The notes under the pieces were generated by a model that searched no databases, was not told the origin of the DNA, and worked only from the letters and a program-made list of their open reading frames with translations. A stretch of 64,000 bases of DNA from a virus. Shown here one piece after another: positions 12,778 through 31,265 of the stretch (the first letter of the stretch is position 1; the number at the start of each line of letters is the position of its first letter). The translations under genes were made by a program, and so were the position numbers. The stretch spans positions 1 through 64,000 of the IMG/VR virus record IMGVR_UViG_3300025769_015982; one strand, given 5' to 3'.

Positions 12778-14103
12778 ATGTACTACCTCATAGAAACACA
12801 AGAGCAATTAGAACGGTTCTTTGAAGGTGAGGGTAACGAGTGTTACCTTCAATTTGTTACAAATAACGACGATACTCACCCTAAATTACAATCGCTTTGT
12901 GCGTTGTACATTTATTCATTTAGTAGGGAAAAGGGTTTTATGGTTAACTTAAATCACCCAGAGGGGTTTGAGCTTGATTTACCAATGAAGTACTTGCGAT
13001 CTTATACGAACATATTCGTTAAAGAAAAAACAAAAAGCTTACTATACATCCCTACACTCCCTTATACGGATATACAAAGCATATACTACTTACTAAAAAA
13101 CGAACCACTACCCTCATTACCAAAAACGGGAACACACACGTTCTATGAGCGCAAATACGGCGCAAATAACGTGAATAAAATAATTCCCCTTGCAAAGCAC
13201 TACGAGGCGTTGACTAACGAATTTGAGGCGATTTACCCGTATATTCGTAGCTATAAAAGTGAAGAATCAAACAAGTGGTACAACGAAATATTTATACCTA
13301 CACTAGCCAAAATGGTAGGTGAAGGCTTTAAAATTAACGACACATTCAAACAACACTTTGATATAAATGAAAAATTCAGCGTTCACGACTCCAAAATATA
13401 CGGATGGTATAATTTTTGCACTACAACAGGACGTCCTACAAACAACTTTAATAGCGTTAATTTCTCAGCTTTAAAGCACGATACAGGCGAGCGAGATGGT
13501 TTTGAAGCAGACAACGACATGCTCATTGAAATGGATTTCGAGGGTTATCACCCACGAATTATAGCGCGTTTGTCAGGTGGTGAATTAGATAAAAGCGAAT
13601 CTGTTCACACACAAATGGCAAAAATGTATTTTGACACTGAAGAGATAGACGCTGAAATGTACAAGCGAAGTAAGGAGCTTACTTTCCAACAAATGTACGG
13701 AGGTATAAATAAAAAATACCTTAAACATAAATATTTTAATAAAGCACAACAATTTATTAACGAGTTATGGCGAGAGTTTAACACACAAGGATATGTTAAA
13801 ACTGTAATTGCGAGGCGCAAGCTTTTAAAAGATAACTATAAAAACATGACTCCCCAGAAGTTATTTAACTACTATATCCAGGCATTTGAGACGGAGTATA
13901 ATTTTACGATGTTATCAAGGTTGTTTAAATTACTCGAGGGAAAGAAAAGTAAAATCATTTTATATGTGTATGACTCTGTGTTAGTAGATTTTTCGTTGGA
14001 GGACGGTAAAGAAACACTTCAAGCGATTAGATCGATAGTTTCGTCTGATTTTCCTGTAAAACTAAAACGCGGCAGTACATACTCTTCTTTAGAGGACCTT
14101 TGA
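12778..14103 (+). CDS. family A DNA polymerase-like protein (atypical, short)
   Basis: TTTGRP; motif A DFEGYHPR; motif B KELTFQQMYG; NYYIQ; motif C YVYDS. Confidence 0.85.
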   Translation: MYYLIETQEQLERFFEGEGNECYLQFVTNNDDTHPKLQSLCALYIYSFSREKGFMVNLNHPEGFELDLPMKYLRSYTNIFVKEKTKSLLYIPTLPYTDIQSIYYLLKNEPLPSLPKTGTHTFYERKYGANNVNKIIPLAKHYEALTNEFEAIYPYIRSYKSEESNKWYNEIFIPTLAKMVGEGFKINDTFKQHFDINEKFSVHDSKIYGWYNFCTTTGRPTNNFNSVNFSALKHDTGERDGFEADNDMLIEMDFEGYHPRIIARLSGGELDKSESVHTQMAKMYFDTEEIDAEMYKRSKELTFQQMYGGINKKYLKHKYFNKAQQFINELWREFNTQGYVKTVIARRKLLKDNYKNMTPQKLFNYYIQAFETEYNFTMLSRLFKLLEGKKSKIILYVYDSVLVDFSLEDGKETLQAIRSIVSSDFPVKLKRGSTYSSLEDL

Positions 14104-18889: not shown

Positions 18890-19873
18890 ATGGCAACGAA
18901 AGATCTAAAAGAAGAACGAATTGTTTATAAACCATTTGAATATCCCGAAGCATTTGACTACTGGTTAAAGCAACAACAAGCTCATTGGATTCACACTGAA
19001 GTACCAATGATGAGTGATATTAATGATTGGAAACAAAACCTGACAGAAACAGAAAAAAACATAATTGGTTCTATCTTAAAAGGCTTTGCACAAACTGAAA
19101 CAGTGGTAAACGACTACTGGACCGGACTGGTTACAAAATGGTTTAGGAAACCAGAAATTATAGCAATGGCGACCACTTTTGGTGCTATGGAAACAATTCA
19201 TGCCGAAGCATATTCACTACTTAATGAAGAACTTGGACTTGACGACTTTAGCGAGTTTCTCGAAGACGAAACTACAATGGCAAAAATTGAGAACCTTATG
19301 TCAGTTAGGGATAGTTTTAATGGCGAAAAGGATTGGCACGAAATTGCTAAATCTCTCGCAATCTTCTCGGCCTTTACAGAAGGGGTCAATTTATTTTCGT
19401 CATTCGCCGTACTCCTCTCTTTCAAATTGCGAAACAAGCTTAAGGGAGTGGGTCAAATTGTTGAATGGAGTATTAGAGACGAAAGCATGCACTCAGAAGC
19501 AGGATGTTGGTTATTTAGAACACTTGTTAAAGAAAACCCTCAGCTCGACACTCCGGAACTCAAAACGGCAATAACTGAAGCTGCTCTTCTTTCACTTCAA
19601 CTTGAACTTGATTTTATTGAGAAAGTTTATGAAATGGGTGATCTTGAAGGGTGTTCTAAAGATGACTTAATCAGCTTTATTAAACATAGAGTTAATACAA
19701 AAATGGGTGACCTTGGCTATGATGGTGTAGTTAATGGAATTGACCCAACAGCACTTAAAAGAATGAAGTGGTTTGACAGCCTCTCAGCAGGTAAACAACA
19801 CACTGACTTCTTTGCAAACAGGGTTACCAACTACAGCAAGGGACACTTGCAGTGGGACGAATCAATATTTTAA
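18890..19873 (+). CDS. nrdB: ribonucleotide reductase class Ia beta subunit
   Basis: ETIHAEAY (including the radical Tyr); EGVNLFSSF; RDESMH; DFFANRVTNY. Confidence 0.95.
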   Translation: MATKDLKEERIVYKPFEYPEAFDYWLKQQQAHWIHTEVPMMSDINDWKQNLTETEKNIIGSILKGFAQTETVVNDYWTGLVTKWFRKPEIIAMATTFGAMETIHAEAYSLLNEELGLDDFSEFLEDETTMAKIENLMSVRDSFNGEKDWHEIAKSLAIFSAFTEGVNLFSSFAVLLSFKLRNKLKGVGQIVEWSIRDESMHSEAGCWLFRTLVKENPQLDTPELKTAITEAALLSLQLELDFIEKVYEMGDLEGCSKDDLISFIKHRVNTKMGDLGYDGVVNGIDPTALKRMKWFDSLSAGKQHTDFFANRVTNYSKGHLQWDESIF

Positions 19874-19876
19874 ATT

Positions 19877-21586
19877 ATGGACGGAAATTTAGTAGCAGAC
19901 ACAACCCAGTGGGTTGTAGGGAAAGACTTCCCTGAATGGATGGATGAAGTTGGTGTAGCAACTATTTCAAAAGGGTATTTATTACCCGATGAAACACCAA
20001 GAAAAGCATACAGACGAGTCGCAAAAGCAATCGCAACTCGGATTGATAGACCAGATTTGGAGGCTAAGTTCTTCAAATATATTTGGAATGGTTGGATTGG
20101 CCTCGCTTCCCCCGTTCTATCTAATACTGGGACCGATAGGGGTTTGCCTATCTCTTGCTTTGGTATTGATACACCTGATAGCGTCAGGGGAATTGGATTA
20201 ACAAACGCTGAACTTATGAAACTTACTGCCCTGGGTGGTGGAGTTGGTATCAGTGTTTCAAGAATTAGGCCTAGGGGAACTGCAATCACAGGTAATGGTA
20301 AATCTGAAGGTGTAGTACCTTGGTGCAAGATTTACGATTCAGCTATTATTGCTACAAACCAGGGTTCGGTTCGTAGAGGTGCTGCATCAGTAAACTTAGA
20401 TATTAATCATCTTGACATTGATGAATTTATGCAAATTCGTAGGCCAAAAGGTGATCCAAATAGGCAATGCCTTAATTTGCACCAATGTGTAGTTGTAGAT
20501 GATACTTTTATGAGGCGTTTACAAGATAGAGATGGTGACGCTATGAAGTTATGGCTTGAAATTTTAAAAACTAGAGTTGAAACAGGTGAACCATACATTA
20601 TGTTTAAGGATAATGTTAATAAAAATAACCCTTTAGCATACGCTATGAATAACCTCGATGTTAGTATGACTAACATTTGTACAGAAATTACATTACATAC
20701 AGATGAAGAACATTCCTTTATATGTTGTCTCTCCTCGCTTAATTTGGCAAAGTACGATGAGTGGAAAGACACAGACGTCGTAGAAACATCAATCCGTTTT
20801 TTGGATGGTGTTATGCAAGAATTTATTGATAAGAGTAATGGCAAAGATTCCCTTATTAGAACCCATAGACACGCTCAAAAAGGTAGAGCACTTGGGTTAG
20901 GTGTAATGGGTTGGCACTCATTCCTTCAAAAGAAAAACCTACCATTTAATTCAATTGCTTCAACAGCTTGGACACATACCATTTTTAGTGACATTAGAAG
21001 CAAAGCAGAAGCCACTTCCAGAGAATTAGCCCAAGAATATGGTGAACCTGTGTGGTGTAGAGGTACGGGTATGAGAAATACTCACTTACTTGCTATTGCA
21101 CCTACAGTATCAAATTCTCGTTTAAATAACTGTTCTGCAGGTATTGAACCTATTCCTGCTAATATTTACACTTTTAATGGTGCTAAAGGGACATTTATTG
21201 TAAAAAATAAAGAATTGGAATGTCTTTTGGAAGGTAAAGGACATAACACAGATAAAGTATGGGATCAAATCCTCGCTGATAATGGGTCTGTCCAAAACCT
21301 CCCCCATGATGTTCTTACTGAGTCTGAAAAAGAAATATTCCTCACATTTAGTGAGGTAAACCAACTTGAACTGGTTCGTCAAGCAGCAATTAGACAAAAA
21401 TATATTGACCAAACCCAATCACTCAATCTCTCATTTGACCCTACAGACTCCCCAAAATGGATTAACCAGTGTCACTTAGAAGCATGGAAATTAGGTGTTA
21501 AAACACTCTATTACTTAAGAACTGATTCAGTAATTAAAGGTGATTTAGGAAGTAGAACCGCAGAATGTATAGCTTGTGATGGATAA
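19877..21586 (+). CDS. nrdA: ribonucleotide reductase class Ia alpha subunit (no ATP cone)
   Basis: SPVLSN; ISCF; TNICTEI; CCLSSLNL; IAPTVS; KTLYYLR; C-terminal CIAC. Confidence 0.95.
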   Translation: MDGNLVADTTQWVVGKDFPEWMDEVGVATISKGYLLPDETPRKAYRRVAKAIATRIDRPDLEAKFFKYIWNGWIGLASPVLSNTGTDRGLPISCFGIDTPDSVRGIGLTNAELMKLTALGGGVGISVSRIRPRGTAITGNGKSEGVVPWCKIYDSAIIATNQGSVRRGAASVNLDINHLDIDEFMQIRRPKGDPNRQCLNLHQCVVVDDTFMRRLQDRDGDAMKLWLEILKTRVETGEPYIMFKDNVNKNNPLAYAMNNLDVSMTNICTEITLHTDEEHSFICCLSSLNLAKYDEWKDTDVVETSIRFLDGVMQEFIDKSNGKDSLIRTHRHAQKGRALGLGVMGWHSFLQKKNLPFNSIASTAWTHTIFSDIRSKAEATSRELAQEYGEPVWCRGTGMRNTHLLAIAPTVSNSRLNNCSAGIEPIPANIYTFNGAKGTFIVKNKELECLLEGKGHNTDKVWDQILADNGSVQNLPHDVLTESEKEIFLTFSEVNQLELVRQAAIRQKYIDQTQSLNLSFDPTDSPKWINQCHLEAWKLGVKTLYYLRTDSVIKGDLGSRTAECIACDG

Positions 21587-21758
21587 TAAATTAAAAGATG
21601 TAATGGAGGACTTAGATGAAGTCATGGCTTTAATAAAAAAATTAGGAGAAGCTACCCCAGATAACGTGGATTCCCTAAGAGAAGATATTAAATTTACGCA
21701 TAATAAAATTAAATCTAAGTATGGCAAAGAGAATCCCCCCGAAACCAACCCATCGTAA
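21576..21758 (+). CDS. hypothetical small protein
   Basis: 60-aa ORF overlapping the nrdA stop and the next gene start. Confidence 0.4.
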   Translation: MMDNKLKDVMEDLDEVMALIKKLGEATPDNVDSLREDIKFTHNKIKSKYGKENPPETNPS

Positions 21759-22248
21759 GCGTAGTCCTTTTTATTGGTGGAGGCGCTTTCCCACACATCA
21801 AGCCCTCCACCATTATAAACCCCTGATTGAAAGGATTCAAAACGGTGATTTTGATTATCCTGAATATTTTGAACAGGCTGAATGGGAAAAGCAATGGTGT
21901 AAGGAAGAAATTGAATCTAAGAGGCATTTATTCAAAGATTCTCAAAGTTTTTTAGAGGAGTCTCGTTCTATTGAACGACGTTATAGAAAGCGTCAAAATC
22001 TTCTTATCAAAGATGGTTATGAGAATGATGAAAAGCGGCTTAAGGAGATTGTAAAACAATTTTCTATTACATTTGGTGGTTCAAAAGATGATGTAGTTGC
22101 ATTTATGGAGAATTTTGATGGTACTCTTGAGGAAATGTACTATGCTTATGCTAGAATTAAAGGTATTAAAAACGTTAGTTTATTAGAAACTATGCCTGTA
22201 AAAAGACGTGGGCGCGGTAGGCCCCGTAAAAATCCTTTAATACAATAA
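21721..22248 (+). CDS. hypothetical protein with C-terminal AT-hook
   Basis: KRRGRGRPRK at the C-terminus. Confidence 0.55.
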   Translation: MAKRIPPKPTHRKRSPFYWWRRFPTHQALHHYKPLIERIQNGDFDYPEYFEQAEWEKQWCKEEIESKRHLFKDSQSFLEESRSIERRYRKRQNLLIKDGYENDEKRLKEIVKQFSITFGGSKDDVVAFMENFDGTLEEMYYAYARIKGIKNVSLLETMPVKRRGRGRPRKNPLIQ

Positions 22249-22251
22249 AGT

Positions 22252-22716
22252 ATGGGAAAATTTCAATCAACAAAATTATTTGACGGATTCAGCTGTGTGT
22301 TCCGTCAGTGGAAAGCAGAAAACACACATTGTAGATTTATGCATGGTTATGGAATTAGCTTTAGAGTATGGTTCGAAGGTGGACTAGACGACCGGAATTG
22401 GGTTTGGGACTTTGGGGGTATGAAACGTGCTCAAACTAAAATTGACGGTATGAATCCTAAAACCTGGATGGATTATATGTTTGATCATACTATATTGGTT
22501 GCTAAAGACGATCCAATGCTTAGTTTAATTAATGAATTAGAACACAATAAAATAGCCCAAGTTAGAGTAGTAGAGGCTACAGGTGCTGAAAAATTTGCTG
22601 AATTTATATTTAATAAACTAAATACATTTGTACAAACTGAAACTGATAGTAGGGTTAGAGTAGCAAAAGTAGAATTTATGGAACACGGTAAAAACACTGC
22701 TATTTATGAAGGTTAA
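22252..22716 (+). CDS. queD: 6-carboxy-5,6,7,8-tetrahydropterin synthase (QueD/PTPS)
   Basis: HCRFMHGY, WVWDFGGMK, FDHT and AEKFA motifs; next to queC and queE. Confidence 0.88.
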   Translation: MGKFQSTKLFDGFSCVFRQWKAENTHCRFMHGYGISFRVWFEGGLDDRNWVWDFGGMKRAQTKIDGMNPKTWMDYMFDHTILVAKDDPMLSLINELEHNKIAQVRVVEATGAEKFAEFIFNKLNTFVQTETDSRVRVAKVEFMEHGKNTAIYEG

Positions 22717-23497
22717 AGTTTCACACGAAGTCCCCCTCCCACTACTTGAGGTTAGTAAAGATTTTAACGACTATGATTACTGCCTCCCCCACTTACTAGA
22801 CCAACATGATTTATACGAACAGTATTTTAGGCAAGCTAAAGTCGAAGGTAGGTATATAATTATGGATAATTCTCTCCATGAATTAGGAGAAGCATATGAT
22901 ACTAAACGTCTATTGCATTGGGTAAATGAACTTAAACCTAATGAATTTATTGTACCCGATGTCTGGGAAAATTGTAATGCTAGCGTTAGGAATGCTAAAA
23001 CATGGGCTTCTGTTGAATTACCTGAAGGAGTAGAAAAAGTAGCAGTTGTACAAGGAAAATCATATATAGAGTTTGCTACCGGATACCAACGTTATAAGTG
23101 GTTAGGTTACCAAAAAATAGCATTTAGTTATGGGGCGTCTTGGTTCCAAGAAACGTTTCAGCACCCAAACCCATACGTAGCTAAAATGATGGGTCGTTTA
23201 AAAACTATTAATAATCTTTATAAAAATAATGTTATAGGAGATTATGATAGAGTACATCTTTTAGGGTGTAATTTACCCCAAGAATTCCTTTACTATAAAG
23301 ACTTCCCATTTATTGAATCTATAGATACTTCAAACCCTGTTATACATGCTTTAAAGGGAATGAGGTATTCCGAGGGGGGTTTATTACATAAAGACAAAGA
23401 AAAAATCGACGAAAATTTCGTTCAACCAATATCCCCAAAACAAAAAGAAGACGTTTTACACAATGTAAAAATGTTTAGAAAAATTAATCAACTATGA
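22706..23497 (+). CDS. TGT-fold guanine transglycosylase, DpdA-like
   Basis: Ordered TGT motifs IMDNS, VPD, VVQG, HLLG and SIDTS; located inside the que cluster. Confidence 0.7.
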   Translation: MKVKVSHEVPLPLLEVSKDFNDYDYCLPHLLDQHDLYEQYFRQAKVEGRYIIMDNSLHELGEAYDTKRLLHWVNELKPNEFIVPDVWENCNASVRNAKTWASVELPEGVEKVAVVQGKSYIEFATGYQRYKWLGYQKIAFSYGASWFQETFQHPNPYVAKMMGRLKTINNLYKNNVIGDYDRVHLLGCNLPQEFLYYKDFPFIESIDTSNPVIHALKGMRYSEGGLLHKDKEKIDENFVQPISPKQKEDVLHNVKMFRKINQL

Positions 23498-23964
23498 ATC
23501 TAGTTTTAATCACAATTACAATTTGCGCCCTAGCTTTTACTTATTATGTTTGGCGTTTCCATGACCAGTTAGCTGAACGAAAAGCAGAAGCCCAATTAGT
23601 AAAATGGAAACTTAAAGAAGAAAAAGCAATTAGAGAAGATGCTTACCAACGTTCTAGAGCAGTTAGCTTTGGTAAAACAATTGAACATTATGTCCCATTT
23701 ATGGAAAATTTTCCTATCAACCCTAATGATGTAAGATTTTTTGGTAACCCAATTGATTATATCGCTTTTACAGAAATGGGATCAAAGAAAAAATGTGCAG
23801 TACATTTCTTGGAAGTTAAAAGTGGGGAAAGTAACTTAAACGCAAGACAAAGAAATATTAAGGATGCTATTCAAAAAGGTAGAGTTTACTGGCATGAGTA
23901 TAATGCAGATGGTATCTGGACACATGAAACAAAAGATCAACATTTAAATAAAAAAGAAAAATGA
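23494..23964 (+). CDS. membrane-anchored PD-(D/E)xK endonuclease (Endonuc_Holl-like)
   Basis: N-terminal TM helix; RSRAVSFGKTIEHYVP, RFFGNPIDYIAF and FLEVKSG motifs. Confidence 0.75.
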   Translation: MNLVLITITICALAFTYYVWRFHDQLAERKAEAQLVKWKLKEEKAIREDAYQRSRAVSFGKTIEHYVPFMENFPINPNDVRFFGNPIDYIAFTEMGSKKKCAVHFLEVKSGESNLNARQRNIKDAIQKGRVYWHEYNADGIWTHETKDQHLNKKEK

Positions 23965-24797
23965 CTAAACAAGCAGTATTGTCACTAAGTGGAGGTATGG
24001 ACAGCTCCACAGTGTTGCTTCATCTACTCGCCAATGGCTATGAAGTGACAGCACTGTCTTTCGATTATGGGCAAAAACACAGAGTAGAACTTGATAGGGC
24101 CCAATCATTAGTAAATTATATTAATGATAAAGCAATTCAATCTAATTTAGACGGAGATTTTATTAAAAGATATTCTAAAGTTAAATATGGGGTTATTAAA
24201 CTTAATGGTTTAGCTCCTATGCTTAATAGTGCCCTTGTAGAAGGTGGAGATGAAGTACCCGAAGGGCACTATGAACAGGAAAACATGAAAGAAACTGTTG
24301 TTCCTAACCGTAATAAAATTTTCTCATCCTTAATTCAGGCTGTTGCCTTATCAATTGCAAATAAAAAAGATACAAAAGTCGATATCGCTATGGGTATTCA
24401 CGCAGGTGATCATGCTATTTACCCTGACTGTAGACAAGAATTCCGAGATGCTGACTATACGGCCTTCCTGGAAGGTAATTGGGACGCTGATCGGGTTAGC
24501 TATATTACCCCTTACCTTAATGGTGATAAGTTTGATATCCTTAAAGATGGACTCGAGTGTTGCGAGAAACTGGGTCTTAGATTTGACGAAGTATATCGAA
24601 ATACAAATACTTCTTACAAGCCCATTAATATTGCTCATGAGTGGTACAGCGATTATAAATCAGCTTCATCGGTCGAAAGGGTTGAAGCCTTTATTAAATT
24701 GGGAAGACCTGATCCAGTACAGTATGCTGATGAATCAGGAGTTGTCAATTGGGAAACTGTACGAAACCATGTGGAAAAAGTCTTAGAAAATGCTTAA
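23961..24797 (+). CDS. queC: 7-cyano-7-deazaguanine synthase
   Basis: SGGMDS, FDYGQKH, VPNRN, GIHAGDHAIYPDCR. Confidence 0.93.
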   Translation: MTKQAVLSLSGGMDSSTVLLHLLANGYEVTALSFDYGQKHRVELDRAQSLVNYINDKAIQSNLDGDFIKRYSKVKYGVIKLNGLAPMLNSALVEGGDEVPEGHYEQENMKETVVPNRNKIFSSLIQAVALSIANKKDTKVDIAMGIHAGDHAIYPDCRQEFRDADYTAFLEGNWDADRVSYITPYLNGDKFDILKDGLECCEKLGLRFDEVYRNTNTSYKPINIAHEWYSDYKSASSVERVEAFIKLGRPDPVQYADESGVVNWETVRNHVEKVLENA

Positions 24798-25563
24798 AAG
24801 AATAGAAGATTATAATAAAGTTCTACCTATAGTAGAAGTATACCGCTGTGTGCAAAGTGAGGGCTCCCGTTTTGGGCGCCCCACTATTGCAATTAGAACC
24901 ACAGGGTGTACCCACCGTTGTTGGTTCGGAGAAGGTGGCTGGTGTGATAGTTGGTATACAAGTATTCACCCTGAAAAAGGTACCTTTACTTTTAACGATA
25001 TAATCGCTATTTATGACGAGAACCCACAAGTTAAAGAAATGATGCTTACAGGTGGGTCACCTACAATGCATGCTGCCCTAGTAAATGAAATTACACATTT
25101 TGCCAAAGAAAGAGGAATCCTCGTTACAATTGAAACCGAAGGATCCCATTTCCTTGAGACTGATAACCCCATTGATCTCATTTCTCTTAGCCCTAAATTT
25201 TCTAATTCTGTACCTAGGGTGGGCATTACTACTCCCGGTGGTAAAATTGTTGATGAAAGGTTTGTCAAAACTCATAACCGTTTTAGATTACATTATGAAA
25301 ATATTAGGAAAACTTTAGATTACCATAAAGACTACCATTACAAGCCTGTTTGGGATGGTACAGACGAATGTTTAGCTGAGATAGAGGAGTTTAGAGTAAA
25401 AATGGATATCCCTAAAGATAAAACCTATGTTATGCCAGCCGGGGATACTCGTGAAACATTAGTTGAAATGTATCCTAAAGTATTTGAAATGGTAGCAGAA
25501 CATGGTTATAATATGACAGGTAGAGACCATATAATAGCATACGACACAGAAAGAGGAGTATAA
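24790..25563 (+). CDS. queE: 7-carboxy-7-deazaguanine synthase (radical SAM)
   Basis: VQSEG, IRTTGC..RC...WCDS, LTGGSP, IETEG, SLSPK. Confidence 0.9.
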   Translation: MLKRIEDYNKVLPIVEVYRCVQSEGSRFGRPTIAIRTTGCTHRCWFGEGGWCDSWYTSIHPEKGTFTFNDIIAIYDENPQVKEMMLTGGSPTMHAALVNEITHFAKERGILVTIETEGSHFLETDNPIDLISLSPKFSNSVPRVGITTPGGKIVDERFVKTHNRFRLHYENIRKTLDYHKDYHYKPVWDGTDECLAEIEEFRVKMDIPKDKTYVMPAGDTRETLVEMYPKVFEMVAEHGYNMTGRDHIIAYDTERGV

Positions 25564-26075
25564 TGGAAAAGATAATTAGTGAAAAAGAGCTAGATATTAA
25601 AATTAAAATTCTAGCTAAAAAAATAAATGATGAACATAGAGGTGATCCTACACCTGTAGTATTAGTTTGTATCTTAAATGGCGGATTTATGTTTTTTAGT
25701 GACCTCGTAAAACAAATTACCATTCCAATTGAAATAGATTTTATTCGTTGTAAATCTTATTTAGGTAGAAAACAAGGTGATTTAGTAGTAACTAAAGATT
25801 TAGAAACAAAAATTAAAAATAAACATGTTTATCTTGTAGATGATATATTAGATTCAGGTAATACTATGAAAGCAGTTACTAAGTTTCTTTCGGTTAAAGA
25901 ACCTAAATCAGTTACTCCTGTAGCAGCAATTTATAAAGAAAGTGTGGACTTTAAGAAAGTACTTCATATATTTAAACAAGATACCGATTCATTATTTGAT
26001 CCATGGTACATAGGGTATGGTATGGATGATGAGAATGGACACAATAGAAATTTAAGCACTATTTATACAATATGA
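25563..26075 (+). CDS. hpt: hypoxanthine/guanine phosphoribosyltransferase
   Basis: CILNGGFMFFSDL; PRPP loop LVDDILDSGNT; IGYGMD...RNL. Confidence 0.9.
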   Translation: MEKIISEKELDIKIKILAKKINDEHRGDPTPVVLVCILNGGFMFFSDLVKQITIPIEIDFIRCKSYLGRKQGDLVVTKDLETKIKNKHVYLVDDILDSGNTMKAVTKFLSVKEPKSVTPVAAIYKESVDFKKVLHIFKQDTDSLFDPWYIGYGMDDENGHNRNLSTIYTI

Positions 26076-27076
26076 TCGCAAAAGCAAGCTACTATAAATT
26101 AATACATCAAATGCAAAATAAAGTAATAGACACCCAAAAATTTAACCATAGTTATGATCACGAATTTTCTCCTACAAAAGAATATTTAAAATCAATGCCT
26201 GATCTCCAAAATGGAGATACTATTAAAGGGTCTAAAGTTGGGATTGAGCGAGTAGGTATATCTAATTTTAGATTACCACTTAAAATTCAAATGAAAGATG
26301 GTAATGTTATGGAAGTTGAAGCTTCTGTAATTGGTACTGTATCCCTTGAAGGTGTAAACAAGGGCATTAACATGTCTCGTATTATTAGAACGTTCTATGA
26401 GTATAAAGACGAAACATTTTCACTTGATACACTTGAAAAAGTACTCCTAGGATATAGAGAACGCCTGGGTTCATATGGAGCCCACATCCAAATCAGCTTC
26501 AACTACAGATTGTGGCAAGAGTCAATGCGTTCTGTAGATGCTGAAGGTAATAAAAATGGTGGTTGGCAATATTATAAGGTTACACTTGAATCCTTATTAA
26601 AAGAAAGTGGTAAATTTAATAAATATATCCATTTTGATTATGTATATTCTTCAACATGCCCTTGCTCTACAGAGCTTGCTTTGCACGCACTTGAAGAAAG
26701 AAATCAATATGCAACCCCACACTCACAACGTTCAGTTGCCCGCATTTCGCTTAAACTAAAAGACTTTATTTGGATTGAAGATATCCAAGATATGTGTCTT
26801 AAAGCTCTTAAAACCGAAACTCAAGTATTTGTTAAGAGAGAAGATGAGCAAGCATTTGCTGAATTAAACGCTGCAAATACTAAGTTTGTAGAAGATGCTG
26901 TTAGATTGTTATTTGAACAGTTTGATGCTGAAGAACGAGTATTAGATTTTAAAATCATTGCTTCACACAATGAAAGTCTTCACTCACACGATGCAATTGC
27001 AGTAATTACTAAAGGAATTGAAGGTGGATTTAACAAACATGTTTCCATCGCAGATATGAAATCATTAATATACTAA
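26072..27076 (+). CDS. folE2: GTP cyclohydrolase IB (FolE2)
   Basis: PDLQ, KGINMSR, STCPCS, PHSQRS, VKREDE, FVEDAVR, ESLHSHDA. Confidence 0.93.
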   Translation: MIAKASYYKLIHQMQNKVIDTQKFNHSYDHEFSPTKEYLKSMPDLQNGDTIKGSKVGIERVGISNFRLPLKIQMKDGNVMEVEASVIGTVSLEGVNKGINMSRIIRTFYEYKDETFSLDTLEKVLLGYRERLGSYGAHIQISFNYRLWQESMRSVDAEGNKNGGWQYYKVTLESLLKESGKFNKYIHFDYVYSSTCPCSTELALHALEERNQYATPHSQRSVARISLKLKDFIWIEDIQDMCLKALKTETQVFVKREDEQAFAELNAANTKFVEDAVRLLFEQFDAEERVLDFKIIASHNESLHSHDAIAVITKGIEGGFNKHVSIADMKSLIY

Positions 27077-27088
27077 AAAATAAAAGTT

Positions 27089-27289
27089 ATGGCATATTGG
27101 CTAGCAAAAGTAAAAATTGAAGAAGAAACAAATCGTGGTGCCGTTAGATGGACCAACGAACAGTTTATTGTCAACGCTGAAAACGCAACTGACGCAGAAG
27201 TAAAATTAACTCAAGAATATTCCAGTTATCCTATGGATTGGCATGTTGATCAGTTAAAGCAAATTAAAATCGTAAAAGTTATTGAGTAA
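27089..27289 (+). CDS. small hypothetical protein (DUF4494-like)
   Basis: 66 aa; YWLAKVK...EQFIVNAENATDAE pattern. Confidence 0.5.
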   Translation: MAYWLAKVKIEEETNRGAVRWTNEQFIVNAENATDAEVKLTQEYSSYPMDWHVDQLKQIKIVKVIE

Positions 27290-27825
27290 TGAGTCAAACA
27301 TATAGAGATTTAGAAAGAAAAGTCAAAAGTAATGATGTTCCTTTTGTGGATGAGGTAGAGGAATTTAATAAATTAATGAATAAACCCAATAACTATGAAC
27401 CCACTATTCCAGAAAAGAAAGAATGGCAATTCGTATATGACTTCGTATTGGAAGAACTTGAGGAATATCGAAACGCATGTGAACGAGGTGACATCGTCGA
27501 AATTTTGGACGCGCTGTGCGACATTGCTTATGTTTCCTTTGGGAACGGAACTATGCTACATGGTCTTAAGGATAAAATTTGGCCAGCCTATCAAGAAGTT
27601 CAAGCCTCAAACTTATCAAAGGCTTGCTCGACTGAGAAAGAAGCTCAAGCAACGATCGCAGTCAGGTCTGCCGAACAAGGGGAGCCGTGCCACTATGAAA
27701 AGTGTGGTGATAAATATATTGTTTACAGAACGCGTGACAGAAAAGTTATGAAAAATGTTAACTATTTCCGTCCGGATCTTAAACAATTTTTTAACGAAAA
27801 AGAATTAAAAAATGTCAACTCGTGA
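27289..27825 (+). CDS. MazG/PRA-PH-like all-alpha nucleoside triphosphate pyrophosphatase
   Basis: EELEEY...EILDALCDIAYV...EVQASNLSK...KVMK..YFRPDL. Confidence 0.8.
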   Translation: MSQTYRDLERKVKSNDVPFVDEVEEFNKLMNKPNNYEPTIPEKKEWQFVYDFVLEELEEYRNACERGDIVEILDALCDIAYVSFGNGTMLHGLKDKIWPAYQEVQASNLSKACSTEKEAQATIAVRSAEQGEPCHYEKCGDKYIVYRTRDRKVMKNVNYFRPDLKQFFNEKELKNVNS

Positions 27826-28105
27826 TTATGAAGGGTGGAGACGTTATGGGCAGTGGAAGAAAGAACAATATGAAAATTATCAAAAACAAATGAGTGATAG
27901 AGAAATCATGAACGCTAAAAGAGTTCAACCAGTAAAATTAAAAAACATAGATCAGATGCCTGATCAAAAGTGGCACCGTATTATTTCCTTTATTAAATCA
28001 GGAATTAGAATCTTAGGTTATGCCCTTATTCCCTTTAACCTAATTACTGCTACAGTAGTTTTAATTGCTAGTGAGGTAGTAGGAATTATAGAAGAATTAG
28101 TATGA
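27812..28105 (+). CDS. hypothetical protein with C-terminal hydrophobic hairpin
   Basis: 97 aa; HRIISFIKSGIRILGY...EVVGIIEELV. Confidence 0.55.
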   Translation: MSTRDYEGWRRYGQWKKEQYENYQKQMSDREIMNAKRVQPVKLKNIDQMPDQKWHRIISFIKSGIRILGYALIPFNLITATVVLIASEVVGIIEELV

Positions 28106-28353
28106 AAAAGTTTTTATATTTTAGTGCCCCATGGTGTGGGCCCTGTAAACAATTAGGTCCAATTATGGATGAACTTCAAGCAGAAGGATATACAGTCCAA
28201 AAAATCGATGTAGATTCTAACCCAGAAATCTGCCAATCGTTTAGTGTCAGAAATGTCCCAACAGTTGTCTTACAAGTAGATAACGTAGAAAAGGGAAGAA
28301 AGCTTGGCCTTAACCCAAAGAATACATATATTGACCTATATAATCAGGTTTAA
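28102..28353 (+). CDS. trxA: thioredoxin
   Basis: WCGPC active site and VPT cis-Pro motif. Confidence 0.93.
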   Translation: MKKFLYFSAPWCGPCKQLGPIMDELQAEGYTVQKIDVDSNPEICQSFSVRNVPTVVLQVDNVEKGRKLGLNPKNTYIDLYNQV

Positions 28354-30068
28354 TGTATAAAAATTGTTATGTTCAAAGAGGTGATGAGTGGAATCATTAC
28401 CGAATACACCTATGGACCGATGAAGGTTACACTGAAGAGGAATTCCAAAATTATGGTTATCAAGAATGCTCCGAAGCCCAAGCGACCCATAAGGGCCTAA
28501 AGGGAGAAAACTTAAAGAAAGTGTTTAATTGGGATAGAGAAAACCCCCAAATGCACTATTCTGACCATACTAGAGGAAATATCCACACTAAATTTCTTAT
28601 TGACAAATATGGTGATGATGATACTCCTTCTGTTACCCATAGGGAAGTATTTTTCGATATCGAGATTGAGATGGGTGGTGCTCTTACCCCAGAATATATT
28701 AAACAAGCACCTAAGCCTGTTACCTCAATTGCATGGTGGGATCGACAATTAGATGATTGGAAAATTATTATTGTAGATAAAGAAGGAAAACTTGAACAAA
28801 CAATTGATAAACAAGGAAGAGAAGTAATCCCCGTAAAACGGGAAACAGACTTATTAGACTTATTTATTAGGATGATGGAAGAAATTCAACCAGATATCCT
28901 TGTAGGTTATAATAGTGATTATTTTGATATTCCTTACTTATATTATCGAATTAAAAACACAATGGGTGATCGTACAGCAAAACGCCTTTCACCCATTAAT
29001 ATTGTAGAAGAACAAACTTGGAATGAGGATGTACCCATCAAAATAGCAGGAGTTAGTTCTCTTGACTATATGCGTTTACATAAAAAATATAGTTTTAAAG
29101 ATGAACCATCATTTAAACTAGATGCATTAGGTGAAAAGTATGTAGGTCAGAAAAAAATTGAGTACGAGGGTTCACTTGATAGGTTATTTGCAGAGGATAA
29201 GGAAAAGTTTATTGAATATAACTTTGTTGATGTTTTAATACTTAAAAAATTAGACGAAAAATTCCAATATATTAATCTAACTAAAAATCTTGCTCATAAA
29301 GGGAAAGTATTATATGAAGAAGTATATCTATCCTCTAAAATCCAAGATGGGGCTATTTCAGGTTGGTTATTATCTCAAAATATTATTCCCCCTAATAAGG
29401 ATTTAAACCCACTTACAAAGAAAAACTATGCTGGGGGTTATCTATTCTGCCCCAAAACAGGTATTTACAACTATATGTTTGATGAGGACCTTACATCACT
29501 GTATCCCTCAATTATTATGTCTCTTAACATTGGTAAAGAAACATACGTTGGTAGAGTATTAGATTTGTATAATGATAGGAATAATAGGTTGGGTTTAAAC
29601 GATTTAGAAGCTATGGTCGCCCAAGACCCCGAAGCAACTATTCCACTTGAAAATACCGCACGTAACCAACAAAATATGCCCGTTAAAGACATAGTCAATA
29701 AAATCAAAACCCATAATCTTGCGGTTACAGCAAATGGTGTTATGTTTAGAACTGATAAAAAATCAGCACTATCTGTTATACTTGATACTTGGTTTGACGA
29801 GCGAGTTAGATATAAAAAAGCAATGAAAACTGCTTATAAGAGTGGCAATAAAAAAGAAGGTGAATTGAATCATTTGAAGCAATACACAATGAAAATCTTG
29901 CTCAACTCACTTTATGGTGCAACCGCCCTACCAAGTTTTAGGTATGGTAGTGTTATTTTATCTGAAGGTATCACACTTACAGGACAACGTATTATCCAAG
30001 AATCGGCTTTATTTGCAAATACACATATGAATAAAGTGCTTCGGGGAGAATTAAAATTAGAATTATAA
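28353..30068 (+). CDS. family B DNA polymerase, N-terminal subunit (3'-5' exonuclease plus motifs A and B)
   Basis: Exo I FDIEIE; Exo II GYNSDYFDIPY; Exo III YNFVDV; motif A DLTSLYPS; motif B KILLNSLYG. No motif C. Confidence 0.92.
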   Translation: MYKNCYVQRGDEWNHYRIHLWTDEGYTEEEFQNYGYQECSEAQATHKGLKGENLKKVFNWDRENPQMHYSDHTRGNIHTKFLIDKYGDDDTPSVTHREVFFDIEIEMGGALTPEYIKQAPKPVTSIAWWDRQLDDWKIIIVDKEGKLEQTIDKQGREVIPVKRETDLLDLFIRMMEEIQPDILVGYNSDYFDIPYLYYRIKNTMGDRTAKRLSPINIVEEQTWNEDVPIKIAGVSSLDYMRLHKKYSFKDEPSFKLDALGEKYVGQKKIEYEGSLDRLFAEDKEKFIEYNFVDVLILKKLDEKFQYINLTKNLAHKGKVLYEEVYLSSKIQDGAISGWLLSQNIIPPNKDLNPLTKKNYAGGYLFCPKTGIYNYMFDEDLTSLYPSIIMSLNIGKETYVGRVLDLYNDRNNRLGLNDLEAMVAQDPEATIPLENTARNQQNMPVKDIVNKIKTHNLAVTANGVMFRTDKKSALSVILDTWFDERVRYKKAMKTAYKSGNKKEGELNHLKQYTMKILLNSLYGATALPSFRYGSVILSEGITLTGQRIIQESALFANTHMNKVLRGELKLEL

Positions 30069-30334
30069 TGGAATTAACACCACAATCTATAAGGAATAAT
30101 GTTTTTATCGAATTAAATGACGAATACATTAAAAAAGAACATGTAATAGAATTAAGCAAAAGTTGGAATGATAAACAGATTTCTTATTTTCGTAAAATGC
30201 TAAAACAAGGGGGTAGTTTAAAAATTAATGGTAATTCTTTTAAAATCACCATTAATGATAGTATAATCTTAAACTCCCGTGGGGAGAAAGATGGTGGTAT
30301 TATTACCATTCCAGGAATAGATGAAAGATTTTAA
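30068..30334 (+). CDS. hypothetical protein between the two polB halves
   Basis: 88-aa ORF coupled to the polB-N stop by a TAATG overlap. Confidence 0.55.
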   Translation: MELTPQSIRNNVFIELNDEYIKKEHVIELSKSWNDKQISYFRKMLKQGGSLKINGNSFKITINDSIILNSRGEKDGGIITIPGIDERF

Positions 30335-30338
30335 GTAA

Positions 30339-31265
30339 ATGAGTAATCAAGAAGAAGTACCATGGTGGATCTGTAAGGAAGAAGATAAAAATTTCTGTAC
30401 TTATGTAGACACTGATTCAAACTATTTCCATGCTGAACCCCTATTAAGACACCTCTACCCGGATTTTAATGAAATGGATGAGAGTAAACAAGACGATTTA
30501 CTCGAGAAAATGGCTCTCAAATACCAAGATCTCATTACTGAATACTATGATACACTAGCTAGAGACGCTTTTAATATCCAAAAACATCGTCTTGAAATGA
30601 AAACTGAATGTACTATTCGTTCAGGATTTTTCTCAGGTAAGAGACGATACGCCCAATACATTACTAAAAAAGAAGGTATAAAGGTAGAAGATATTGATGT
30701 TAAAGGTCTTGATTTTATGAAATCAAATTTCCCACCTCTATTTAAGAAGTTTTTTAATGAAATACTTAATAAAATCCTATTTGGAGCTACTAGAAATTCA
30801 ATTGACCAAGAAATCCTTGAATTCAAAAACAGTTTAGATGAATTGCCACTTGAAATGTTAGGCAAACCCACAGGAGTTAAAGATATTAAAAAATATATTG
30901 AACGTCCTCCGGGTGCAGGGAATATCTTTACAGTACTAAAAACAGGAACCCCAGTTAATGTTAAAGCTGCTGTCCGTTATAATGATTTTCTTAAATTTAA
31001 AGGATTAGACAAGCAACATTCCCAAATTGTACAGGGTGATAAAATTAAATGGGTATATTTAAAAGATAACCCTTATAAAATTGATACAATGGGTTTCTTA
31101 GACTTTGATTTCCCAGAAGGTATTCGTACATTCGTAGAGACTTATATAGATAGGGATAAAGCATTCGATTCTATTCTAAAAAATAAGTTAGAAACTTTTT
31201 ATAAAGACTTAAGTTGGGGTAGTTTAACCCTTAACACACATGTAAATACATTTTTTTCATTCTAA
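30339..31265 (+). CDS. family B DNA polymerase, C-terminal subunit (motif C, thumb)
   Basis: YVDTDS; KRRYA; VKGLD; ends TFFSF, resembling a clamp-binding motif. Confidence 0.92.
   Translation: MSNQEEVPWWICKEEDKNFCTYVDTDSNYFHAEPLLRHLYPDFNEMDESKQDDLLEKMALKYQDLITEYYDTLARDAFNIQKHRLEMKTECTIRSGFFSGKRRYAQYITKKEGIKVEDIDVKGLDFMKSNFPPLFKKFFNEILNKILFGATRNSIDQEILEFKNSLDELPLEMLGKPTGVKDIKKYIERPPGAGNIFTVLKTGTPVNVKAAVRYNDFLKFKGLDKQHSQIVQGDKIKWVYLKDNPYKIDTMGFLDFDFPEGIRTFVETYIDRDKAFDSILKNKLETFYKDLSWGSLTLNTHVNTFFSF

Follow-up and report, generated by a model that had tools for sequence, protein, structure and literature searches.

A purine phosphoribosyltransferase as a fixed part of DpdA3 7-deazaguanine modules, seen from an uncultured marine phage, with a possible role in guanine recycling

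Phages that carry a DpdA3 transglycosylase are, to our knowledge, the only viruses that exchange every guanine for a 7-deazaguanine. In Flavobacterium phage immuto, Campylobacter phage CP220 and Cellulophaga phage phiST the guanine of the DNA is fully replaced by fdPreQ1, dADG or dDG, and the authors who defined DpdA3 conclude that the insertion is post-replicative (PMC10516641). Here we analyzed a stretch of 64,000 nucleotides (the window), which is the first 64 kb of the 86-kb IMG/VR record IMGVR_UViG_3300025769_015982, a record with an estimated completeness of about 52%. At 22252-27825 on the + strand the window holds a nine-gene run encoding QueD, DpdA3, a nuclease, QueC, QueE, an Hpt-type purine phosphoribosyltransferase (PRTase), FolE2, a DUF4494 protein and a MazG-like protein. 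We find that the purine PRTase is a constant component of the DpdA3 system, and we put a probability of roughly 60% on the reading that the locus is a DpdA3-type hypermodification module in which Hpt recycles the excised guanine.

The system belongs to the published DpdA3 kind. It shares with the described members the DpdA3 homologue, a FolE-class enzyme and QueD, QueE and QueC, and with immuto it further shares the sub-block of PRTase, cyclohydrolase, DUF4494 and MazG-like genes, with GroES/GroEL and replication genes nearby. The virus is related to immuto yet distinct from it, and a megablast search of the region against cultured phages gave no match. This member differs from immuto in carrying FolE2 rather than FolE, an Hpt-type rather than a Gpt-type PRTase (gp211 in immuto) and a split family-B polymerase (PolB) rather than PolA. 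It also differs from the published DpdA3 systems in that its QueD and QueC are without the canonical zinc ligands and in that a PF10107 nuclease sits inside the run. The QueF, DpdN and adjacent kinase of immuto are all missing here, which leads us to predict dPreQ0 rather than fdPreQ1 as the final base.

Seven of the eight gene junctions in the run overlap by 1-11 nt and the remaining one is a 12-nt gap, so that the run is tightly (translationally) coupled. The initial annotation of this DNA had named eight genes of the run and assigned them to 7-deazaguanine DNA modification. All eight are present on the + strand where it had placed them, and the assignment holds as well. The two DNA polymerases that it saw adjoining the run turned out to belong to a single family-B polymerase whose gene is split in two.

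The PRTase gene (25563..26075, + strand) encodes a protein of 170 aa that matches PF00156 with 82 bits and TIGR01203 with 124 bits (123.7, where the trusted cut-off is 150). It aligns end to end with the Hpt proteins of E. coli and Salmonella (1g9s and 1j7j), and the VDDILDSGNT loop that binds phosphoribosyl pyrophosphate (PRPP), the KSYLG Ser-Tyr loop, the O6 lysine in YKES and the Mg site in GYGMD are all kept. All catalytic elements are common to the cellular enzymes and the window Hpt; what differs is that the latter is embedded in a DNA-modification operon. The protein falls in a phage-specific marine clade of more than 120 marine clusters that are at least 83% identical, with TARA sources.

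The linkage of the PRTase to the deazaguanine genes was examined in 80 window-type loci (DpdA3 57-91% identical) and 80 immuto-type loci, from which we counted the 32 window-type loci covering everything from QueE to PolB and the 58 immuto-type loci with sufficient flank. A purine PRTase lies between QueE and PolB in every window-type locus (32/32), as an Hpt-type enzyme in 27 and as a Gpt/XPRT-type enzyme of about 145 aa in the other five. The immuto-type loci likewise have a PRTase throughout (58/58), but here 48 are Gpt-type and 10 are Hpt-type, and the two types never occur together. In all 32 + 58 loci the gene is directly upstream of FolE or FolE2. PRTases are also present in each of the five DpdA3 lineages that we examined, namely window-type, immuto-type, phiST, the Brevundimonas phage MaInes and CP220. 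The phiST gene adjoins a deoxynucleoside monophosphate (dNMP) kinase and ribonucleotide reductase (RNR), the MaInes block has the order QueC-QueD-QueE-x-DpdA3-like-Pol-x-RNR-dNMP kinase-FolE-PRTase, and the 137-aa PRTase of CP220 was found by a Gpt-type profile (E 8.7e-14). The PF00156 search is insensitive in this context, since it gave a false negative for CP220 and also misses the FolE-fused domain described below. PRTases are otherwise rare in phages, and deazaguanine phages account for 26 or more of the 40 records that a Gpt-type query matched in the database. The link between hpt and que genes, which the initial annotation had proposed to check in relatives, is therefore borne out in the counted loci and across five independent DpdA3 lineages. 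We found no mention of this association in PMC10516641, PMC6884629 or PMC10484667, nor in the other literature that we searched.

Set against Gpt (xanthine-guanine phosphoribosyltransferase, XGPRT), the Gpt-type proteins among the relatives of the window locus are pared down to about 130-145 aa, and other relatives have a Gpt-like domain that is joined to FolE. The fused form is an unannotated domain of about 115 aa at the N-terminus of FolE, with RGG and VDDIxDSGxT intact, and occurs in 34 siphophage records from phages of Pseudomonas, Vibrio, Stenotrophomonas, Variovorax, Xanthomonas and Sphingomonas. Examples are found in Pseudomonas phage Baskent_P4_1 (L166:4971-5864) and Vibrio phage VpKK5 (L167:4998-5900). 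VpKK5, a member of the Queuovirinae and one of the two fusion neighborhoods that we inspected, has a canonical DpdA next door. The characterized partial modifiers iggy, 9g and CAjan are not among the 34 fusion records. Across this locus and its roughly 90 relatives, a PRTase has persisted through non-orthologous replacement (Hpt for Gpt), and other deazaguanine phages have retained one as a fusion with FolE.

The transglycosylase gene of the run (22706..23497, + strand) encodes 263 aa with a tRNA-guanine transglycosylase (TGT) fold and no zinc subdomain, and is by homology and structural modeling a member of the DpdA3 family. Its nearest cultured relatives by tblastn are immuto DpdA (40% identity, E 5e-54) and CP220 gp056 (37%, E 2e-40), and the homologue in CP220-like Campylobacter phages is annotated as a hypothetical protein. 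A profile of the family matches CP220 (E 5.7e-70), phiST (E 4.6e-15) and also a Brevundimonas phage. A sequence search against the PDB returned nothing significant, and only the fold search succeeded: an AlphaFold2 (AF2) model (pLDDT 91, pTM 0.88) gave Foldseek top matches that are all TGTs, plus the bacterial preQ0 insertase DpdA 7ui4 (root-mean-square deviation 4.1 over 248 columns), with probability 1.00. Across 22 diverse sequences three aspartates never vary, namely D54 (IIMDNS), D85 and D207 (SIDTS), and hhalign pairs the Asp residues with the DSG and CDSS motifs of a canonical phage DpdA, at very low probability only. The family is very large: clustering at 90% identity leaves 3,977 clusters, most of them from marine metagenomes. 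Net charge and pI were considered as a way to discriminate between DNA and nucleotide substrates and were found to be uninformative, as a canonical phage DpdA is equally acidic. As a separate observation, the CP220 gene directly upstream of DpdA3 (gp055, L002:10862-11893) encodes an HD-domain phosphohydrolase with a fused P-loop domain, and a P-loop kinase lies downstream, so that nucleotide-handling enzymes adjoin the CP220 DpdA3 on either side.

In the reading that we favor, FolE2, QueD, QueE and QueC would convert GTP to preQ0, and the DpdA3 encoded in the same coupled run would exchange guanine in the phage DNA for this base. Each exchange would spend one GTP and release one free guanine. 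Hpt would then combine the released guanine with PRPP to give GMP, and host kinases would bring this back to GTP for FolE2. With such a loop a fully modified genome would cost half as many guanine nucleotides, and a product that otherwise competes in the reversible exchange would be removed as well. The stoichiometry fits recycling: for every G, full modification consumes one dGTP plus one GTP and gives back one guanine. In this reading the gene identities, the folds of DpdA3 and MazG, the conservation and the synteny are established, and the substrates of Hpt, DpdA3 and MazG and the final base are inferred.

Several features point to guanine as the substrate of the PRTase. The Hpt-type and Gpt-type enzymes interchange in the same slot within both the window-type and the immuto-type lineage, and the final bases that have been measured across lineages differ (fdPreQ1, dDG and dADG; PMC10516641). 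Because the PRTase types swap across lineages with different final bases, guanine, which leaves in every transglycosylation, would be the sole substrate that all of them share. It is also relevant that TubE, the PRTase of tubercidin biosynthesis and the only deazapurine PRTase to have been characterized, accepts 7-carboxy-7-deazaguanine (CDG) and rejects 7-deazaguanine (PMC6112128); given such narrow specificity, a freely swappable PRTase that takes varied 7-substituents is unlikely. The DDIxD(S/T)G motif, including the Asp that contacts N7, is kept in essentially all of about 110 phage PRTases, and the PRTase abuts or is fused to FolE, which is the GTP-consuming entry of the pathway and not its end. 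That Hpt recycles the guanine released by the transglycosylase was named as the simpler alternative in the initial annotation, and it has become the better-supported reading.

There are a number of points that weigh against this reading. The attempts of Hutinet/Cui et al. to demonstrate DpdA3 activity, including DNA modification in E. coli, failed (PMC10516641), and no active DpdA3 is known to date. A replacement of 100% of G is hard to achieve by post-replicative exchange, and PMC10516641 cites a report of the ADG nucleoside from the cytoplasm of cells infected with CP220. The kept N7 Asp is no proof of guanine specificity, the likeness of the MazG-like protein to DR2231 (see below) does not fix its substrate at 18% identity, and the genes missing from the record are to be read against its completeness of only about 52%. 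The fusion-bearing Queuovirinae, for their part, would be partial, motif-specific modifiers by analogy with the characterized relatives 9g, CAjan and iggy, that is, by taxonomy. To these can be added the proven activity of TubE, the kinases beside DpdA3 or the PRTase and the nucleoside triphosphate (NTP) hydrolases near DpdA3, which are taken up with the alternatives that they favor.

The initial annotation had proposed as its headline that guanine is replaced before replication: Hpt would make a deazaguanine nucleotide, the MazG-like enzyme would deplete dGTP and a polymerase would insert the modified base, as in the PurZ/MazZ/DpoZ system. In general terms, a nucleotide-level replacement of guanine ahead of replication in DpdA3 systems, the present one among them, whether through DpdA3 acting on dGMP/dGTP or through a TubE-like PRTase, seems to us rather unlikely. 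The second of these routes, in which a TubE/ToyH-like PRTase joins a deazaguanine base to PRPP, kinases and RNR carry the ribonucleotide to the dNTP, MazG destroys dGTP and the polymerase incorporates the analogue, is one that we regard as distinctly improbable. Its chemistry does have a precedent. TubE is a proven CDG:PRPP transferase of the HGPRT family, and the TubE/ToyH clusters of Streptomyces, which make tubercidin and toyocamycin, resemble the window in combining a purine-type PRTase with GTP cyclohydrolase I, QueD and QueE, and in toy also QueC (PMC6112128). The PRTase is moreover universal in the DpdA3 lineages with 100% G replacement, RNR and thioredoxin flank the cluster, a modified-dGTP pathway was once proposed for Campylobacter phages (PMC6884629), and the activity of DpdA3 is unproven. 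However, the toy and tub clusters are without TGT or DpdA (bioRxiv 10.64898/2026.04.15.718813) and their product is a free nucleoside antibiotic and not DNA, while this route would leave the DpdA3 that is present in every locus without a role. By cluster description, which is the only level at which we compared them, the TubE/ToyH clusters carry GMP-reductase-like, adenylosuccinate synthetase/lyase and phosphatase genes, and none of these families is found among the window genes at 17.5-34 kb. The interchange of Hpt and Gpt types across chemically different final bases, the canonical Asp that contacts N7 and the adjacency or fusion of the PRTase to FolE at the pathway entry all argue against a deazaguanine substrate. 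The window-type cluster has no dedicated nucleoside monophosphate kinase, its MazG resembles a dUTP-type enzyme, and an analogue ribonucleotide pool would also enter RNA. With regard to the polymerase, no type co-varies with the system, as window-type loci have the split PolB and immuto-type loci have PolA. The system of cyanophage S-2L and its relatives (PurZ/MazZ/DatZ/DpoZ) is like the window in placing nucleotide-pool enzymes beside a polymerase and in full replacement of one base. The window differs from it in having no PurZ-like synthetase, a MazG that is not MazZ-like by sequence or fold search, no co-varying polymerase clade, and a transglycosylase, which the S-2L system does not have. 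Thus the gene calls of the initial annotation, the role in modification and the hpt-que linkage stand, and TubE lends a precedent to the chemistry that it proposed, but the pre-replicative headline is not favored by these results.

The other nucleotide-level route would follow the logic of T4. A pyrophosphatase would turn dGTP to dGMP, DpdA3 would swap the base on dGMP (or dGTP), a dNMP kinase and the polymerase would complete the pathway and the PRTase would again recycle guanine. This has the merit of giving a role to every conserved component and of explaining 100% replacement, and we still think it unlikely. In its favor, a homologous P-loop kinase lies beside DpdA3 in immuto (58/58 loci) and CP220, dNMP kinases adjoin the PRTase in phiST and MaInes, and in four lineages DpdA3 has an NTP hydrolase in its neighborhood, which is MazG-like or, in CP220, of the HD-domain type. 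DpdA3 is also a minimal barrel without zinc or nucleic-acid-binding subdomains, and attempts to obtain DNA modification with it in E. coli failed. On closer inspection the kinase is not diagnostic of nucleotide-level action, since it is far from the cluster in complete window-type genomes and Streptomyces phages with no que genes in the vicinity carry the same family. Thymidylate_kin, DNMK and Guanylate_kin gave no match in the 86-kb record, which is weak evidence at about 52% completeness. The MazG looks dUTP-type, an AT-hook protein upstream of DpdA3 in many loci hints at a DNA substrate, and we know of no TGT-superfamily enzyme that acts on mononucleotides. The authors who defined DpdA3 also read the insertion as post-replicative. 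Finally, the PRTase could be a general booster of purine supply, feeding FolE with guanine or hypoxanthine from degraded host nucleic acids and having no specific coupling to DpdA3. This overlaps with the reading that we favor and differs from it only in the source of the guanine. The position of the PRTase next to or fused with FolE, the canonical nature of the Hpt, the nucleases embedded in the cluster and the low-nutrient marine habitat would all suit it. Against it, PRTases are rare in phages, most matches (the 26 or more of 40 given above) are in deazaguanine phages and the enzyme is universal in the complete-replacement DpdA3 lineages, a distribution that fits a need scaling with the guanine released. 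We give a supply function of this kind very little weight.

If the PRTase recycles excised guanine, this would explain how the phage affords a fully modified genome, and the PRTase may then be the "missing factor" for reconstituting DpdA3 activity. If it instead makes a modified nucleotide, the accepted post-replicative model would be wrong, and a pre-replicative replacement would be the first purine counterpart of the hydroxymethyl-dCTP logic of T4 to use a transglycosylase-fold enzyme. Either way, the linkage of the PRTase makes the question of how DpdA3 phages reach 100% replacement directly testable. The clade is abundant in marine metagenomes, so phage DNA in which every G is modified may be widespread in the sea, which would have consequences for restriction evasion and nanopore-based viromics.

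The predicted final base rests on the four preQ0 enzyme families FolE2, QueD, QueE and QueC, all of which are present. QueD (22252..22716, + strand) is a 6-carboxytetrahydropterin synthase-like protein that matches PF01242 with 55 bits and phrog_2389 with 134 bits and is 63% identical to immuto QueD. The canonical QueD zinc motif has three His, and the window protein reads FSCVFRQ and CRFMHGY at these positions, with two of the three missing. QueC, the preQ0 synthase (23961..24797, + strand, 278 aa), matches PF06508 with 123 bits, is 67% identical to immuto QueC and carries an insertion. Its C-terminus ends in ...YKSASSVERVEAF (YKSASSVER) without a CxxCxxC, so the C-terminal Cys zinc site is missing (for the canonical motifs see also PMC10516641). 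The radical-SAM 7-carboxy-7-deazaguanine synthase QueE (24790..25563, + strand) matches phrog_2076 with 165 bits and TIGR03365 with 59 bits and is 68% identical to its immuto counterpart. The first pathway enzyme, the type IB GTP cyclohydrolase I FolE2 (26072..27076, + strand), scores 266 bits with NF010200 (cut-off 215) and 221 bits with PF02649. QueD, QueC and QueE fall under the cut-offs of their TIGRFAM equivalogs and are thus divergent forms. Despite this, QueD and QueC are still likely to be functional, because their immuto orthologues come from a phage with proven fdPreQ1. Taken together with the zinc-independent FolE2 and a DpdA3 that has no zinc subdomain, the whole pathway looks zinc-free. 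FolE2 is the less usual choice, as had been noted initially: besides the window it occurs in 2/32 related loci and 1/58 immuto-type loci, and all others have FolE.

The initial annotation had noted that the window has no queF, arcS or gat-queC, and we find that QueF, DpdN, a type-I FolE and a second PRTase are absent from the whole 86-kb record. There is no amidotransferase domain to be seen on QueC, although no dedicated search was made for ArcS or Gat-QueC. The QueC of immuto must yield preQ0, because immuto proceeds through QueF. The likeness of the window QueC to it and the lack of QueF and DpdN in the record then lead to dPreQ0 as the predicted final base, with dADG as a less likely alternative. 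By analogy with other DpdA3 phages, dPreQ0 would probably be at or near complete G replacement.

The last gene of the run (27289..27825, + strand) encodes a MazG-like, all-alpha NTP pyrophosphatase whose C-terminal extension is conserved, and matches PF01503 with 38.9 bits (cut-off 21.3) and phrog_671. Residues E55, E56, E59, D74 and D78 (EExxE..DxxD) are invariant in 18 sequences, so with its metal site intact the protein is probably active. The AF2 model has a pLDDT of 90, and all 37 significant Foldseek matches are chains of DR2231 (E 2e-5, TM-score about 0.6-0.7). The sequence gave no match in the PDB below E 0.2. The structure of MazZ is in the PDB, and MazZ is absent from the matches. 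DR2231 of Deinococcus radiodurans has the same EExxE..DxxD metal site and was crystallized with dUMP/dUMPNPP, but it is 18% identical to the window protein and is without the C-terminal beta-hairpin region, which in the window family carries two invariant Cys. The trimeric dUTPase (PF00692) is absent from the window record and two complete window-type genomes (together G000, G001 and G002) and from immuto, and CP220 has one. The gene is present in 31/32 window-type and 57/58 immuto-type loci, and the family is widespread also in phages without deazaguanine genes. The window protein is 81% identical to immuto gp208, compared with 40% for DpdA3, 63% for QueD and 58% for GroEL between the same two phages. 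It is most likely a dUTPase-type house-cleaning enzyme that sits with RNR and thioredoxin in a nucleotide-metabolism region, and probably not a dGTP-depleting one. The depletion of dGTP in the initial proposal is weakened by this, given that the only significant fold match is dUTP-type and that these phages have no other dUTPase.

Two smaller genes complete the run. The nuclease (23494..23964, + strand) is a PF10107 archaeal-Holliday-junction-resolvase-like endonuclease (Endonuc_Holl, 125 bits) with a hydrophobic N-terminus. It occurs in about 10 of the 32 related loci, and six others, including all five Gpt-type loci, have a staphylococcal-nuclease-like gene. The nuclease family thus varies, with PF10107 in the sub-lineage of the window and the staphylococcal-nuclease-like form in the Gpt-type sub-lineage (for example L020:13719-14012 and L022:13513-13905). 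The DUF4494 mini-protein (27089..27289, + strand, 66 aa; PF14902, 30 bits), which was not in the initial annotation, corresponds to the N-terminal half of the Pfam domain. Where present, as in immuto (gp209), 10/32 window-type loci and 24/58 immuto-type loci, its gene lies between the cyclohydrolase and the MazG-like gene.

The surroundings of the module can be used to place the virus. The window encodes a tail sheath, a gp32-like single-stranded DNA-binding protein, a RecA/UvsX-like recombinase, a flap endonuclease, a DnaB-like helicase, class I RNR, thioredoxin, GroEL and clamp-loader genes. The tail sheath together with this set of replication and nucleotide genes implies a large myovirus, and the source is an uncultured marine myovirus that probably has its host in the Bacteroidota. 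The small and large subunits of the class I RNR (18890..21586, + strand; PF00268, 220 bits, and PF02867, 345 bits) are directly upstream of the module. At the module border lies a conserved 175-aa protein (21721..22248, + strand) that ends in a C-terminal AT-hook (RGRGRPRK) and has no Pfam, PHROG or NCBIfam match. Among its homologues in 58 loci, the RGRP core is found in 36 and a position directly upstream of DpdA3 in 17, and it may serve the module as a regulator or as a partner that binds DNA. This protein was also considered as the missing nucleotide kinase and rejected, as it has no P-loop and no similarity to the immuto and CP220 kinases beside DpdA3.

Downstream, a 97-aa protein with a hydrophobic C-terminus and then a thioredoxin (27812..28353, + strand; thioredoxin at 28102-28353, PF00085, 58 bits) form the bridge from the module to the polymerase, and homologues of the 97-aa protein (orf97) are found in most related loci. 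The split PolB follows at 28353..31265 (+ strand), with the N half at 28353-30068, an 88-aa open reading frame (ORF) at 30068-30334 and the C half at 30339-31265. The first half (571 aa) covers PF03104 and positions 24-203 of PF00136, and the second (308 aa) covers positions 260-355 of PF00136. The split recurs in related loci, often with the small 88-aa ORF between the halves. A separate PolA-like gene of 441 aa lies at 12778-14103 of the window, 9 kb upstream of the run. Its product matches only the C-terminal polymerase part of PF00476, and the gene comes right behind the baseplate/tail genes and is also kept in relatives, L004 among them. The remainder of the window from 38012 to 64000 is taken up by a sugar-biosynthesis island, which reaches to about 69600 of the record. 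It encodes GT4 and GT2 glycosyltransferases, a hexapeptide acyltransferase, a HAD-nucleotidyltransferase fusion, two carbamoyltransferases, a sugar C-methyltransferase, two DegT aminotransferases and the nonulosonic acid synthase NeuB, a glycan pathway that is unusually large for a phage.

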